64,000 bases of DNA from Acidimicrobiaceae bacterium (GTDB taxonomy: Bacteria; Actinomycetota; Acidimicrobiia; Actinomarinales; Actinomarinaceae). Shown here one piece after another: positions 2,497-59,944 of the stretch. The notes under the pieces were generated by a model, which saw only the letters and a list, made by a program, of their open reading frames with translations, had not been told where the DNA came from and did not search any database. Each line of letters starts with the position of its first letter. Positions within the stretch are counted from its first letter, which is position 1. Where the stretch lies: NCBI GenBank assembly GCA_028344675.1, contig JAOMBT010000003.1, positions 288 through 64,287 of the forward strand, in the 5' to 3' direction. A program made the position numbers and the translations under genes.

Positions 2497-2733
2497 ATGG
2501 ATATCAAACTTGAATTTTGTGTAGTTTGAAACTACACCCCTCGTGCAGTTAGTACGATTGAAGATATTTTAGAAAAATATGGAAACACGGTTGAATCAAT
2601 TAATTTGATTCCAAGTGGTGGTGGAGTATTTGAATTTCAATTAAATGGAAAATTACTTTTTTCAAAAAAAGAATTAGGAAGACACTCTGAAGATGGAGAA
2701 ATTCTAAAGTTAATTGAAGAATCACTTAGTTGA
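2497..2733 (+). CDS. SelW/SelT/SelH (Rdx) family selenoprotein with a CxxU redox motif; in-frame UGA (Sec) at 2527..2529
   Basis: Absent from the ORF track because of the in-frame TGA. Manual translation: MDIKLEFCVV-U-NYTPRAVSTIEDILEKYGNTVESINLIPSGGGVFEFQLNGKLLFSKKELGRHSEDGEILKLIEESLS. This matches the Rdx-fold pattern: CxxU near the N-terminus, P-x-GGG-x-FE, and S-K-x3-GR-x-P/S-E. Confidence 0.85.
2519..2537 (+). promoter_or_regulatory. Perfect 8-bp hairpin GTGTAGTT-TGA-AACTACAC with the Sec UGA codon in the loop (candidate recoding/SECIS-related structure)
   Basis: The inverted repeat was read directly. An alternative overlapping downstream hairpin (ACTACAC...GTG...TAGT, about 2531..2553) is also possible. 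Confidence 0.5.
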
Positions 2734-32945: not shown

Positions 32946-33983
32946 ATGAGACTTACAGAGTATTCTCATGGTGCTGGTTGAGCATGTAAACTTTCTCAGA
33001 AAGAACTTGCTCAGGTACTGAAGCACTTTAAACAACAAAATAAATCAGACTCTCATAAAATACTTGTTGGTCTTGACACTCCTGATGATGGAGGGGTAAT
33101 TGAATTACAAAGTGGTGTTAAAATTATACAGACCGTTGATTTCTTTACACCCATATTAGATAATCCTTTTGATTGGGGAAGGGTCGCGGCAGCAAATGCC
33201 CTATCTGATATATATGCAATGGGAGGTAAACCATTATCAGCTTTACAGCTTGTTTCATGGCCAAGAGAAGACTTATCATTTGAGATACTTTCAGAAGTAC
33301 TAAATGGTGGTTTGCAAATAATGAATCAAGCCGGCTGTACTATTATTGGCGGACACAGCATAGATGACAAAGAACCCAAATATGGTTTTGCAGTTACTGG
33401 AATCATCGAAGATAATATTTACAGAAAGACAAATATAAAAGAAGGTGATAGCTTATATTTAACTAAACCTCTTGGATCAGGAATTATCTCATCAGCAATT
33501 AAAAAGAATATCGCAAGCAAAGATTGCATTAAAGAAGTAACGGATTTAATGACAACTCTGAATGACAAAGCTCTTCAGTTAGCATCTGAAATGAACGCTA
33601 ATGCAATTACGGATGTTACTGGTTTTGGTTTACTGGGGCATTTGATTGAAATGGTTGGTGAAAATGACTTGTCTGTTAACCTATTTTCAAATAAAATACC
33701 GTTTCTTGAATATGCAGAAAAATATCTAGAACAGGGGATTTATCCTTCTGGAAGCACTAGAAACTTAGAGTCTATTAGAGAACATATACATTTTGATAAA
33801 AGTGACGAATCAATAGTAAACCTAATGGCAGATGCACAAACCAGTGGAGGTTTACTGTTTTCATCTCCGAAAAAAACTTCTGAAAATATTGACTCTATTT
33901 GTCAAAAAATAGGAATTGAAATATGGGAAATAGGAAATATTGTTTCGAAATATAAAAATAAAGTCAATATTATTAAGTCTTAA
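32946..33983 (+). CDS. selD: Selenide, water dikinase (selenophosphate synthetase) SelD, selenocysteine-containing; in-frame UGA at 32979..32981
   Basis: The ORF track lists only 33219..33983. The same frame is open from the ATG at 32946 apart from one TGA. It translates to MRLTEYSHGAG-U-ACKLSQKELAQVLKHF...VGLDTPDDGGVIEL...QTVDFFTPILDNPFDWGRVAAANALSDIYAMGGKP. This matches the SelD N-terminus, with U at the catalytic Cys (E. coli GAGCGCK). Confidence 0.9.
32979..33013 (+). promoter_or_regulatory. Candidate SECIS-type hairpin starting at the selD UGA
   Basis: Outer stem TGAGCA (32979-32984) pairs with TGCTCA (33008-33013). Inner stem CTTTC (32991-32995) pairs with GAAAG (32999-33003). The UGA codon itself is base-paired at the foot of the structure. 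Confidence 0.5.
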
Positions 33984-53634: not shown

Positions 53635-56144
53635 TTATTCAAATCTAGTCATTTTTAATGAATTAATAATTAAATTTTTAAATTTAATATTTGCTTTTAA
53701 GCGTTCAATTTTTTGTTTTGTAACTTTTTCAGCTGATGGAAGAGGATTTAACTCCACAAACTTCTCTATATCATTTCCAAGTAATTCGTTATAAATTGAC
53801 GGAAGACCATCAAGTATCCTTGAGGATGTCCATTCAGGCATAACTTTTAACAGGTCGTCCCAGTTCTCTTTTACAATCATCCAAGCAGCCTCTCCATTTT
53901 CTGTGTGGGAAATTAACCCAGAAATAATATATGGTGCATCTGCTCCTCTAATAGTGCCTTCTAAAATGGCATTTAAAACAGTTTTTGGAGTCTTTGGGTC
54001 ACTTAATCCCCATAACATTGACCTATATCTTCCTTCAATTTGTGGAGTCTCTGCTTCTATGAATTTATCAAGATATTTTGTAACAGACACTGATTGATCC
54101 ATTCCAGCTATTGAAAGGACAAGATTGTAGTAATTTCCATCATCGTATTCTTCATATTTATTAGACTCAAATAAATCTACAAAATAATTATTAAATTCTT
54201 TATCACTTGAATATTTTGCATACAGGCCACATACTATTGATCTGAGTTGAGACTCTTCTTGGCTTGAATTTTCATTGTATTCTTTACCTAACACATCCAG
54301 GCTTGGTTCACAAAATTTTCCAATAAATAACCCTAAGTTTTTATCAGGAAAAATTTTATACATTGTTGAAAATATTCCCGAGACAAGGGCCCAAATATTT
54401 TTATCTTTTTCATGTTTATATAGAGCTAATAATTCCATGAAGTCATCAAAAGATATTTGGTCGATTCTTAATGACATCCAGGAGTCTTCTAAAAGTCGAT
54501 ATTTTTCATTTATGTCAAGCTCTTTGAAATGGGAAGATATCTCCTGTAGAAGTTCACTGCTATACGCAGTATGAAAAAAAGCCCACCCTCCATTGTTAAT
54601 GTAAGGAACACTTCCTTTACTTTCAAAATTTTCAGATACACTTTCAAGCAATAATTTACTCTCACGTTTTGTATCTAAATATTTAATATTTATTGGTATG
54701 TGCCAAAGTGAGTCATCAGTACTTCCATCAATCAAAAATTTTCTTTGAGATAATTTCAAAGAAGAATCTTGGATTTCTACCGACACAATTGGATACCCCT
54801 CTTGCTTAATCCATGTTGGAAGTATTTTATTTAATTCGTACTCCGAAGCTTCAGTTAACTCATTCCAAAGATCTGTTGAGTGTGTGTTCTTAAACTGATA
54901 TTTTTTTAAATAATTCCTGACTCCAGATTTAAAATTATCTTCTCCAATAAACGTTTCAAACATCCTCAAAACAGTTGAGCCCTTTTGATAGGTTAAAACA
55001 TCAAACATCTCTTCAGCTTCTTCTGGTGTTGCTACTTCAAATTCAACAGGCCTAGATGATTTCAGTGAGTCTACATTAAAGCCTTGACTTCTTGCCAAAT
55101 TTAATTCATTCCATAACTTGAATTCTGGATATGTAGCTTCAGATGCTATGACTTCCATTAAACTTGCAAATGCTTCATTAAGCCAAATCCCATCCCACCA
55201 TTTCATTGTTACTAAATCACCAAACCACATATGTGCTAGTTCATGTGCAACTACCTCTACAGATCTTGAAAGCTCTGCTCTTGTAGCTTTTTCTACGTCA
55301 ATCAAGAGAAGGGTCTCTCGGAATGTAACTGCACCCACATTTTCCATAGCACCCATTGCAAAATCAGGAATTGCTATCAAGTCAAGTTTTGAACCAGGGT
55401 ATTTTATATCATAATAGTTTTCAAAAAAATCCAAAATTTTTATTGCAGCTTCTCCGGCAAATTTGGTTTGGTGACTGAATCCCGGTCTATGCACAACTCT
55501 GACATTAGTTGATCTAGATTTTCCAATTTCCGTAATCTCAAGAGGTCCTACAATAAAAGCTACTAAATAAGTGGACATTCGCATTGAATCAACAAACTTC
55601 GTAGTAGCTCTACCGTCTTTATTTGATTGACTTAACACAGCCTCATTACTAATTCTTATATCGCTTTCATTTGAAGTTAACGTAATAGAAAATACTGATT
55701 TAAATTCAGGTTCATCCCAACAAGGAAAGCCATTCTTGCAGCAGTTGGTTCAAACTGTGTTGTTGCAATCGACTTTTCTTCATCATTTTTGTCTATAAAC
55801 TTACTTCTATAAAAACCTCTTAAGTCATCAACAACATTTCCAGTAAAATCTATGTACAACTTCCAGTCGCCAGTCTCTATGCTATCTTCAAAGTTAAGAA
55901 GAATTTTCTCATCATCTTTGAGATAGTTTACTGATCCATCAATATGTGCTCCGTTGTCATTTTCAACAAAGCAGCTATTTACTGTTAACCCTACTGAATT
56001 AAGTTGTAATTCTGTTGTGTCCTCAACAACTTCAATAAAGATGGTTTCTGAACCATTGTATGTAAAATTTTCAAGGTCAATATCTAAATGGATTTCATAC
56101 CTATTTGGAATTGCTAATTTTGGAAGTAATATATTTTGATTCAT
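53635..56144 (-). pseudogene. pepN: Aminopeptidase N (M1 family) interrupted by a 1-nt frameshift near 55724-55725
   Basis: Two ORFs (55677..56144 and 53635..55638) sit in different frames. The N-terminal ORF ends ...TQFEPTAARMAF then goes out of frame. Shifting by one base restores PCWDEPEFKSVFSITL..., continuing into the second ORF, which carries GAMEN and HELAHMWFGD...WLNEAFA. Confidence 0.85.
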
Positions 56145-58850: not shown

Positions 58851-59180
58851 TTATTTCATTATTGGTAGTTGACCATTATCAGATGTATTTGAAATCTCTT
58901 CTTCTGCAATAATTTGGGATTCTCTTACAGCTAAAACTACCTTCCCTGTTGGTGGCCATATAAATTTCCAAGCACCGCTTGCAACAGCCCAGAATTGCTT
59001 TTCAGTATCCACATCAATTAGTGGAAGAGCTTCTGAAGTTTTTTCACTTCCTGCAGGAACTAAAAGCCCCGACTTTGTAATCGTTTCTTCTCTTAAGTGT
59101 CCAACTCTCCAACCTGGAGAAACTTTAAAACCTGCCGGAGCAAACTGGATGTCTTCGAGTAAATCCTTATCTTCTATCAT
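58851..59180 (-). CDS. Hypothetical 109-aa protein with possible remote GroES/Cpn10-like similarity
   Basis: ORF track. The segment REETITKSGLLVPAGSEK and the C-terminal VVLAVRESQIIA loosely resemble the GroES mobile-loop and C-terminal strands. It abuts the hflX start with no gap. Confidence 0.35.
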   Translation of the reverse strand: MIEDKDLLEDIQFAPAGFKVSPGWRVGHLREETITKSGLLVPAGSEKTSEALPLIDVDTEKQFWAVASGAWKFIWPPTGKVVLAVRESQIIAEEEISNTSDNGQLPIMK

Positions 59181-59215
59181 TTTCTTATAATAAACATAAA
59201 AAAACTATAAATTAG

Positions 59216-59307
59216 CGGAGGTGGACAGGAATCGAACCCGCCAAAGACTTTTACACCTTTCAACAGTTTTGAAGACTGTGGAGCCCACCAGGCGCTCATT
59301 CACCTCC
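59216..59307 (-). tRNA. selC: tRNA-Sec (anticodon UCA), selC; no encoded CCA
   Basis: Reverse strand: GGAGGTGA-AT-GAGCGCC-TGGT-GGGCTC-C-ACAGT-CTTCAAA-ACTGT-[21-nt variable arm]-GCGGG-TTCGATT-CCTGT-CCACCTCC-G. The anticodon loop CTTCAAA matches my recollection of the E. coli selC loop. There are 13 nt between the T-loop and the discriminator (8+5 design). The D stem is long with a 4-nt loop. Total length is 92 nt. Confidence 0.85.
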
Positions 59308-59356: not shown

Positions 59357-59944
59357 ATGATGAGTAATTTTAAAAATACTTTTAATCAATTAAAAAAGGA
59401 AAGAGAGCTTAGTAATAAGCAGGTAGCTTCATTTACTGGTGTAAAGATTAAAGAAGTTAAGAAATGGGAGACAGGTACAAGTTTTCCTACAGACATCAAA
59501 GTTGTTAATGCTTTAGAGGGCATATTGGGAACCGAGATAACTAAGTCTCTTGAAGGTTTTAAGACTAAAGAGAATAGATCTTCTTCTTTAATTGGTTCAG
59601 AAGATGAGATATTTAAAGTTAATAATGAAAAGCTTGAGGTTTCTAATACAAGAATTGACAGACTTCGAAATATTTTTCAACGTGAAACTCAATCTAATAA
59701 CGACTTTAATTATGATTCAGACTTTGAAATCTCTTTTGACAATCAAGCGCTTCCAAAAAGAGCAATAGTCAATGAAGAAAACAATTCAGAACAACCGTAT
59801 TTGTACGATGATAAGCAACTTGGGTTTTATATATCTAGAAATATTAAAACTGTGGGTTTACTTTCTATTTTAGGTTTAGTAATTATTAGTTTTTTCAGAC
59901 TTTTTTGGGAATCATTCAATCTCTTCATTAACAATATATTGTGA
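59357..59944 (+). CDS. XRE-type helix-turn-helix protein with a C-terminal transmembrane anchor
   Basis: 195 aa with an N-terminal HTH (LKKERELSNKQVASFTGVKIKEVKKWETG) and a C-terminal hydrophobic helix (TVGLLSILGLVIISFF). Its stop overlaps the ctaA GTG start. Confidence 0.6.
   Translation: MMSNFKNTFNQLKKERELSNKQVASFTGVKIKEVKKWETGTSFPTDIKVVNALEGILGTEITKSLEGFKTKENRSSSLIGSEDEIFKVNNEKLEVSNTRIDRLRNIFQRETQSNNDFNYDSDFEISFDNQALPKRAIVNEENNSEQPYLYDDKQLGFYISRNIKTVGLLSILGLVIISFFRLFWESFNLFINNIL

Follow-up and report, generated by a model that had tools for sequence, protein, structure and literature searches.

A probable functional selC gene of Candidatus Actinomarina with the eighth-position non-pairing and D-stem bulge typical of actinobacterial tRNA-Sec

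The stretch of DNA analysed here, 64,000 nucleotides long and referred to as the window, carries a gene for a selenocysteine tRNA (selC) on its minus strand. ARAGORN returned a single gene in the whole 64-kb window, a tRNA-SeC (tca) at 59215–59307. A scan of both strands against 4227 Rfam families placed the tRNA-Sec family RF01852 at 59307 to 59217, scoring 73.6 bits (E=3.4e-13) where the gathering score is 47. This match was full-length (1–91 of 91), no other tRNA-clan family was kept at the selC site, and RF01852 was the single family above its gathering score anywhere in the window. selC is the only RNA gene detected in the window, as the initial annotation had also stated. That annotation had described a 92-nt tRNA-Sec with a UCA anticodon, a CTTCAAA anticodon loop, a TTCGATT T-loop, a 21-nt variable region and 13 nt between the T-loop and the discriminator, and all of these elements were reproduced. 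Covariance models preferred tRNA-Sec to tRNA-Ser and tRNA-Leu, the misassignments that it had considered.

Read on its own strand, the gene is GGAGGUGAAUGAGCGCCUGGUGGGCUCCACAGUCUUCAAAACUGUUGAAAGGUGUAAAAGUCUUUGGCGGGUUCGAUUCCUGUCCACCUCCG. The minus-strand location had gone unmentioned in the initial annotation. The anticodon UCA occupies 59270–59272 and is the same in all 49 Actinomarinales relatives; the discriminator is G, as in 71/71 sampled tRNA-Sec sequences. The anticodon stem is separated from the 5-bp T stem by 21 nt. CCA is absent from the gene, the bases after the discriminator being CUA. The structural pattern of selC found no match in any of 100 shuffled versions of the window. The identical 92 nt occur in four independent metagenome assemblies which are 99.2–99.7% identical to the window over 12 kb, so the bases at A8, C84 and the bulge are not sequencing or assembly errors.

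Reference loci anchored on HflX place the organism in Candidatus Actinomarina (Acidimicrobiia, Actinomycetota). Downstream of selC, on the same strand, lie a 109-aa ORF, hflX, gnd and aminopeptidase N, and upstream, in divergent orientation, lie an XRE-like HTH gene, ctaA, rpoD and tldD. The tRNA-Sec gene sits directly upstream of hflX in 49 of 50 Actinomarinales loci, the exception being a truncated contig. The rpoD-ctaA-HTH / selC-hflX-gnd block is syntenic in ~49 species, which places selC in the conserved core genome rather than at an island junction. A simple promoter and terminator scan returned nothing on the selC strand. The aminopeptidase N gene is split in the window by a 1-nt deletion and is intact elsewhere; an in-frame UGA was considered as the cause of the split and rejected, since the stop is TAA and the two ORFs lie in different frames.

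Two protein-coding genes in the window are the predicted clients of this tRNA-Sec: selD(U), encoding selenophosphate synthetase, and a gene for a 78-aa Rdx-family selenoprotein. Both had been proposed in the initial annotation and both were found by translation together with Pfam. The in-frame UGA (Sec) of selD lies at 32979–32981, at the catalytic position (MRLTEYSHGAG-U-ACK), and the gene matches the MRLT* selD selenoprotein family described in a recent preprint (10.64898/2026.04.03.716425). With U replaced by C, the Rdx product matches Pfam PF10262 (E=8.3e-17). Hairpins follow the UGA codons of both genes; they were not better than those of shuffled sequences (z −1.4 and −0.8), and being indistinguishable from shuffles they support no claim of SECIS elements.

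The genes selA and selB were found nowhere in the window, in agreement with the initial annotation. Neither was among the ~55 window ORFs annotated with Pfam and NCBIfam, a search for the EF-Tu/SelB G1 motif in six frames of the window did not find selB, and neither gene was present in the 10 kb to the right of the window as represented in near-identical assemblies. The presence of selA and selB in the host rests on a report covering 84 complete Actinomarina genomes, all of which contain selC, selA and selD, and in which selB is divergent and falls below the KofamScan threshold (10.64898/2026.04.03.716425). The same preprint reports ~5 selenoproteins per Actinomarina genome, including the MRLT* selD(U). 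Actinomarina had thus already been reported to use selenocysteine, with selC and selD(U) among the genes described (10.64898/2026.04.03.716425).

Table 1 Features of the tRNA-Sec gene and of the selenocysteine-related protein genes in the window.
Feature	Positions	Strand	Basis or remark
selC, tRNA-Sec(UCA), 92 nt	59216–59307	−	G1 = 59307, discriminator G73 = 59216
Acceptor stem, 5' strand GGAGGUG	59301–59307	−	Pairs with 59217–59223
A8 (standard position 7)	59300	−	Opposite C84; invariant in 49 Actinomarinales
D arm: 6-bp stem GAGC[G]CC/GGGCUC, 4-nt loop UGGU	59281–59297	−	Two-sided changes
Bulged G15 (standard position 13a), 5' strand of D stem	59293	−	Required for 6 bp
Anticodon arm: 5-bp stem ACAGU/ACUGU, loop CUUCAAA	59263–59279	−	ARAGORN anticodon at position 36
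Long variable arm: stem AAAGG/UCUUU, 8-nt loop	59243–59261	−	MFE fold
G66 (standard G48)	59242	−	Invariant in every sequence examined
T arm: stem GCGGG/CCUGU, loop UUCGAUU	59225–59241	−	Stem 100% paired across class
C84 (standard position 66)	59224	−	Invariant in Actinomarinales; C in 30/35 class sequences
Acceptor stem, 3' strand CACCUCC	59217–59223	−	Alignment pair counts
selD(U), selenophosphate synthetase	32946–33983	+	Translation; Pfam AIRS, AIRS_C
Rdx-family selenoprotein gene, 78 aa	2497–2733	+	CVVU motif; Sec codon 2527–2529

For comparison, GGAGG-type tRNA-Sec sequences were gathered from metagenomes with a structural pattern that excluded Actinomarina. They comprise a same-length class of 26 distinct sequences with 33 nt before the anticodon loop and a standard-length class of 45 sequences with 32 nt, the E. 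coli spacing; pairs were counted in 35 distinct sequences aligned in a fixed register (the class alignment). Named Actinomycetota examples of selC were drawn from a plasmid collection, in which the best matches of a class representative are Actinomycetota. A phage collection searched with the selC tRNA gave no match. The geometry of the window gene is common to Tsukamurella, Streptomyces, Nonomuraea and Embleya, and in Tsukamurella and Streptomyces the selC of this geometry adjoins annotated selD, selA and selB. The selC of Arthrobacter, which also adjoins selD, selA and selB, carries the same pattern at positions 8, 66 and 84 without the bulge. On these sequence comparisons, we assign the window tRNA to the Actinomycetota tRNA-Sec class.

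Positions 1–28 of the tRNA and the 3' acceptor strand, including A8, G15 and C84, are invariant in 49 Actinomarinales, whereas the proteins neighbouring selC have diverged to 40–60% identity. Compensatory changes among the selC relatives fall in the T stem and the anticodon stem; the stem of the variable arm is invariant among Actinomarinales and its loop varies. Across the class, four of the five anticodon-stem pairs are changed on both sides, and a potential sixth pair, C28:U46, is never paired. With tertiary nucleotides mapped according to the Aquifex structure (PMC3711452), the window tRNA has the equivalents of U16, G18, G19, U20, U55, C56, U59, C15, G20a and G48.

The D arm forms six pairs around a UGGU loop only with one bulged G on its 5' strand, at 59293, as the initial annotation had described. 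In the class alignment, two-sided compensatory changes affect five of the six D-stem pairs; the sixth, the closing pair C17:G22, is invariant there and is equivalent to C15:G20a of a conserved base triple. That annotation had considered the bulge unusual, a view that the wider sample overturns: a single bulge on the 5' strand is required in 24 of the 26 same-length environmental sequences, as well as in Tsukamurella, Streptomyces, Nonomuraea and Embleya. In 33 of 35 aligned sequences, either position 14 or position 15 provides the partner of 24. The 45 sequences with E. coli spacing form their D stem without a bulge. One 5'-strand D-stem bulge is the rule in the structural class to which the window gene belongs. 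Frequent D-stem bulges in bacterial tRNA-Sec were remarked upon by the authors of the Aquifex structure (PMC3711452), and a Secmarker survey placed a D-stem bulge at 13a in Clostridiales (PMC5330540).

Each of the seven acceptor pairs is standard in 35/35 aligned sequences, and pair 6:86 changes on both sides (CG in 24, UA in 10, AU in 1). Two T-stem pairs are changed on both sides across the class, and T-stem pair 69:81 is A-U in ~24 relatives, G-C in ~25 and, as an intermediate between the two, G.U in the window. The 13 nt at 59217–59229 provide seven acceptor pairs, five T pairs and an additional layer to which C84 contributes, so that the helix has 13 layers whether it is divided into seven acceptor and six T-stem pairs (7/6) or eight and five (8/5). 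The initial annotation had proposed the 8/5 design; its count of 13 stands, and its specific allocation of eight acceptor and five T pairs is uncertain.

That allocation turns on the opposition of A8 to C84 (A59300 and C59224), which the initial annotation had recognized correctly and had regarded as unusual. In the class alignment, positions 8 and 84 are U:C in 19 sequences and A:C in 11, and just 2 of 35 have a standard pair there; an unpaired eighth position typifies the class. Position 8 holds U or A, and no sequence with C at 84 has G at 8. By comparison, 66 and 84 can pair in 32 of 35 sequences and cannot in three. The same-length class behaves similarly (66:84 pairable in 23/26, 8:84 in 2/26), and in the standard-length class 8:84 is standard in 10/45 and not standard in 35/45. 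An unpairable position 8 opposite C84 with G66-C84 complementarity is also found in Tsukamurella, Streptomyces, Nonomuraea, Embleya and Arthrobacter. Like the bulge, the A8/C84 non-pairing is a conserved class feature and not a defect. Two roles are open to each of the nucleotides concerned. A8 may be the 5' base of an A.C mismatch (8/5) or the first nucleotide of a 3-nt AAU linker between the acceptor and D stems (7/6); G66 may be a linker nucleotide engaged in the C15:G20a:G48 triple, or it may pair with C84 as the 5' base of a sixth T-stem pair.

We consider it probable, from pair counts and predicted folding energies, that C84 pairs with G66 rather than with A8, giving a 7/6 fold. This fold is the MFE structure of the window tRNA in ViennaRNA, at −32.6 kcal/mol compared with −30.5 kcal/mol when A8 and C84 are left unpaired, a gain in stability of 2.1 kcal/mol. 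A fold of this kind, with a 7-bp acceptor stem and a 6-bp T stem (13 bp in total), was independently proposed in 2026 for mycobacterial tRNA-Sec (PMC13449736), which starts GGAGGCG (PMC13449736). Two-sided covariation of 66 and 84 is impossible because G66 (G48) never varies, and the C15:G20a:G48 triple explains this invariance without a 66:84 pair. The evidence for 7/6 is accordingly one of compatibility and not proof, and the G66:C84 complementarity could be coincidental. A conventional bacterial 8/5 tRNA-Sec, in which G66 stays in the triple and the A.C opposition (U.C in most relatives) is tolerated or perhaps functional, is possible though somewhat doubtful. In favour of 8/5, conservation of C15, G20a and G48 is complete in bacterial tRNA-Sec and the crystal shows them joined in a triple (PMC3711452), the equivalent bases are invariant in the class alignment, Rfam aligns the window tRNA in the 8/5 manner, and the 35 of 45 standard-length tRNA-Sec with a non-standard 8:84 indicate that a mismatched thirteenth layer is evidently tolerated. 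What weighs against 8/5, besides the energies and the mycobacterial proposal, is that C, complementary to G66, occupies position 84 in 30 of 35 sequences, together with the rarity of a standard 8:84 pair and the consistent avoidance of G at position 8 opposite C84. The 9/4 arrangement of archaea and eukaryotes would pair A9 with U83 and enclose A8.C84 as an internal mismatch. In its favour, Actinomarina could form A9-U83, and nine acceptor pairs were drawn by the Rfam model. Only 14 of 35 sequences allow 9:83 to pair, however, and most of these are non-independent Actinomarina rows; the competing 67:83 pair forms in 35 of 35 and includes a change from G.U to G-C. We rejected the 9/4 fold on these counts and regard it as very improbable.

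With either division of the helix, the gene is very probably the single functional selC of a Candidatus Actinomarina genome, with A8/C84 and the bulge typical of its class, and nothing in the analysis contradicted its identity as selC. The single mismatch and the single bulge that set the gene apart from the E. coli model, and the lack of selA and selB nearby, might suggest a decaying or non-functional relic, or a type-2 tRNA resembling tRNA-Ser or tRNA-Leu miscalled as Sec. Such an explanation is barely credible given conservation in 49 species despite flanking proteins of 40–60% identity and the compensatory stem changes, which rule out a pseudogene. The same features also occur in selC genes that lie beside selA, selB and selD in cultured Actinomycetota, the window holds UGA-containing selD and Rdx genes, and two independent tRNA finders called Sec. 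A D arm of the tRNA-Ser kind, with a 4-bp stem and a 9-nt loop, was tried and rejected as 3.3 kcal/mol worse. Because selC is a classic integration site, we also considered whether the locus is an attachment site of a mobile element, with the XRE-like gene and the 109-aa ORF belonging to an island. A viral contig bearing a tRNA-Sec of the same class has a tyrosine integrase immediately 3' of it, and the 109-aa ORF is confined to one subclade. In the window, however, no integrase or other mobile-element gene was found in the selC flanks, and the HTH gene is syntenic in ~49 species along with ctaA, rpoD, hflX and gnd. A mobile-element junction is therefore highly unlikely here and was rejected on synteny.

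Following the established bacterial pathway, the selC transcript would be trimmed, and CCA would be added post-transcriptionally because it is not encoded. Seryl-tRNA synthetase would then charge the tRNA with serine by way of G73 and the long variable arm, and SelA would convert serine to selenocysteine, reading the long D stem and the 4-nt D loop. Recognition by SelA is reported to be structural and not sequence-specific, with the fifth and sixth D-stem pairs being important (PMC7609411). SelB would bring the charged tRNA to in-frame UGA codons, among them those in the selD and Rdx genes; a 13-layer acceptor/T helix is required by SelB and rejected by EF-Tu (PMC7609411). The tRNA itself has seven canonical acceptor pairs, with C84 supplying the thirteenth layer, most likely through G66 in the 7/6 arrangement, a 6-bp D stem with one flipped-out nucleotide at 13a, a UGGU D loop and a 5-bp anticodon stem.

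The gene supports the decoding of UGA as selenocysteine in an abundant marine bacterium with a very small genome, and its importance beyond correct annotation is little. Precedent for both the bulge and the eighth-position feature has been published. Our additions are modest: the actinobacterial tRNA-Sec geometry extends to Actinomarinales, where it is strictly conserved, and the eighth-position "mismatch" is better termed a class-typical non-pairing that is compatible with 7/6. A 7/6-type geometry like that of mycobacteria, together with the D-stem bulge, seems to reach a distant, AT-rich branch of the same phylum. This geometry may be useful for models of SelA and SelB recognition and for tRNA-Sec covariance models, and it is a warning that what counts as a "mismatch" by the E. 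coli model may be the norm in a lineage. The 78-aa Rdx-family (SelW-like) CxxU protein may put a name to the uncharacterized family of the preprint. A broader reading is plausible but tentative: Actinomycetota tRNA-Sec could represent a third bacterial architecture, distinct and spread across the phylum, with Mycobacteriales and Streptomycetales at one end and the deep-branching, streamlined Actinomarinales at the other. It would combine a 7/6 helix in which G48, otherwise engaged in the triple, is drawn into a sixth T-stem pair, a 3-nt acceptor-D linker and an obligatory flipped-out 13a. If this were true, co-evolution with the divergent SelB of Actinomarina would be possible, and the order-wide conservation of A8, G15 and C84 would reflect recognition by SelA and SelB and not neutral tolerance.

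Among known systems, the closest likeness is to tRNA-Sec of the mycobacterial type in Actinomycetota (PMC13449736 and the named examples), which begins 5' GGAGG(U/C)G and has 33 nt before the anticodon loop. The named Actinomycetota tRNAs share with the window gene one bulged nucleotide on the 5' strand of the D stem, a UGGU D loop, a position 8 unable to pair with C84 and a G66 able to do so, a T arm of the form G-GCGGG-UUCGAUU-CCYGU-C, and the G73 discriminator. They differ from it in having U and not A at position 8; the variable and anticodon arms of the window tRNA are AU-rich and its CCA is not encoded, unlike theirs. The window gene lies in the conserved rpoD…hflX block and not next to selA, selB or selD. 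The hosts also differ, Actinomarina being a streamlined marine member of the Acidimicrobiia with a genome of ~1.1 Mb (10.64898/2026.04.03.716425) and 33% GC.

The E. coli selC used as reference (100% identity to the annotated tRNA-Sec) resembles the window gene in its CUUCAAA loop with UCA, 13-layer helix, 6-bp D stem, 4-nt D loop, long variable arm, G73, basal T-stem pairs G49.U65 and C50-G64, and conserved G48. Unlike the window gene, E. coli selC has a Watson-Crick C:G eighth pair and a G48 that stands opposite G and is unable to pair, lacks a D-stem bulge (32 nt before the anticodon loop), and has a sixth anticodon-stem pair (G.U) and an encoded CCA. The tRNA-Sec of Aquifex aeolicus (PMC3711452) likewise has a 6-bp D stem with a bulge, which is flipped out in the Aquifex crystal, and the nucleotides of its U16:U59, G18:U55, U20:G19:C56 and C15:G20a:G48 contacts are present in the window sequence. 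Its bulge is C11a, compared with 13a in the window, and, unlike the window tRNA, it has a true 8-bp acceptor stem and an anticodon-stem bulge, 43a (PMC3711452). The Clostridiales tRNA-Sec with a D-stem bulge share its location at 13a with the window tRNA, and have a 12-bp (7/5) helix in place of the 13 layers found here (PMC5330540).

The 109-aa ORF that separates selC from hflX in the window has zero matches in Pfam and NCBIfam, and is 80–98% identical within the window's subclade (loci L001–L023 and L060). A deeper Actinomarinales clade does without it, and hflX there directly adjoins selC. On the other side, the synteny of the divergent XRE-like HTH gene is kept in all relatives, yet the gene itself is fast-evolving (40–82% identity). 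The selC promoter must overlap the start region of this gene; a simple promoter scan gave no hit on the strand of the tRNA.

Coordinates of features in the window and on the viral contig L076
Feature	Position	Strand	Remarks
Rdx-family (SelW-like) selenoprotein gene	2497-2733	+	78 aa, CVVU motif, Pfam PF10262 E=8e-17
Candidate bacterial SECIS hairpin	32979-33013	+	35 nt; starts at selD UGA itself
Aminopeptidase N	53635-56144	-	Two ORFs (56144-55677, 55638-53635); 1-nt deletion
109-aa ORF between selC and hflX	58851-59180	-	
XRE-like HTH gene, divergent from selC	59357-59944	+	Start 49 nt from tRNA 5' end
tRNA-Sec + tyrosine integrase gene	L076 9616-10951		IMG/VR contig IMGVR_UViG_3300033168_000020

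The Rdx gene carries its Sec codon at 2527–2529 and ends on a stop that is likewise TGA (2731–2733). A preprint on complete Actinomarina genomes describes a "most abundant, uncharacterized 78-aa" selenoprotein family (10.64898/2026.04.03.716425). The Rdx protein has this same length, and neither Rdx nor SelW was found as a name in the preprint text (10.64898/2026.04.03.716425), so the window gene may supply the family assignment for that group. For the hairpin at the selD UGA, 62 nt were folded, giving −11.7 kcal/mol, which is no significant gain in stability relative to shuffled sequence (z=−1.4).

The stop that interrupts aminopeptidase N is TAA rather than a Sec codon. At the deletion the window reads GAATGGC-TTTCC versus GAATGGCATTTCC in close relatives, and four assemblies that share 99.2–99.7% identity with the window carry the gene unbroken, as an 836-aa ORF. 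The split thus reflects either an error in assembly or a pseudogene specific to this strain.

The tRNA itself also varies within the order. A 3' CCA is encoded at seven loci that are among the most distant in Actinomarinales (L029, L030, L032, L033, L034, L036, and L041) and not in the remaining ones, the window included; CCA encoding has thus been gained or lost inside Actinomarinales. Beyond the order, we considered 45 standard-length metagenomic tRNA-Sec of the GGAGG type, drawn from L077–L156, in which 32 nt precede the anticodon loop. In this sample, biased by the search pattern, the eighth acceptor position forms a standard pair in only 10 sequences, with A:A in 13 and C:A in nine, and G48 stands opposite A in 27. 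Given so few standard eighth pairs, a non-Watson–Crick 13th layer of the acceptor/T helix seems, from these pattern-biased sequences, to be common far outside Actinomycetota.

Although no integrase lies beside selC in the window, such an arrangement occurs on the high-GC viral contig L076, where a tyrosine integrase gene is located directly 3' of a tRNA-Sec of the same class as the window's, with a bulged D stem and U8/C84/G66. Elements integrated at selC classically show this arrangement.
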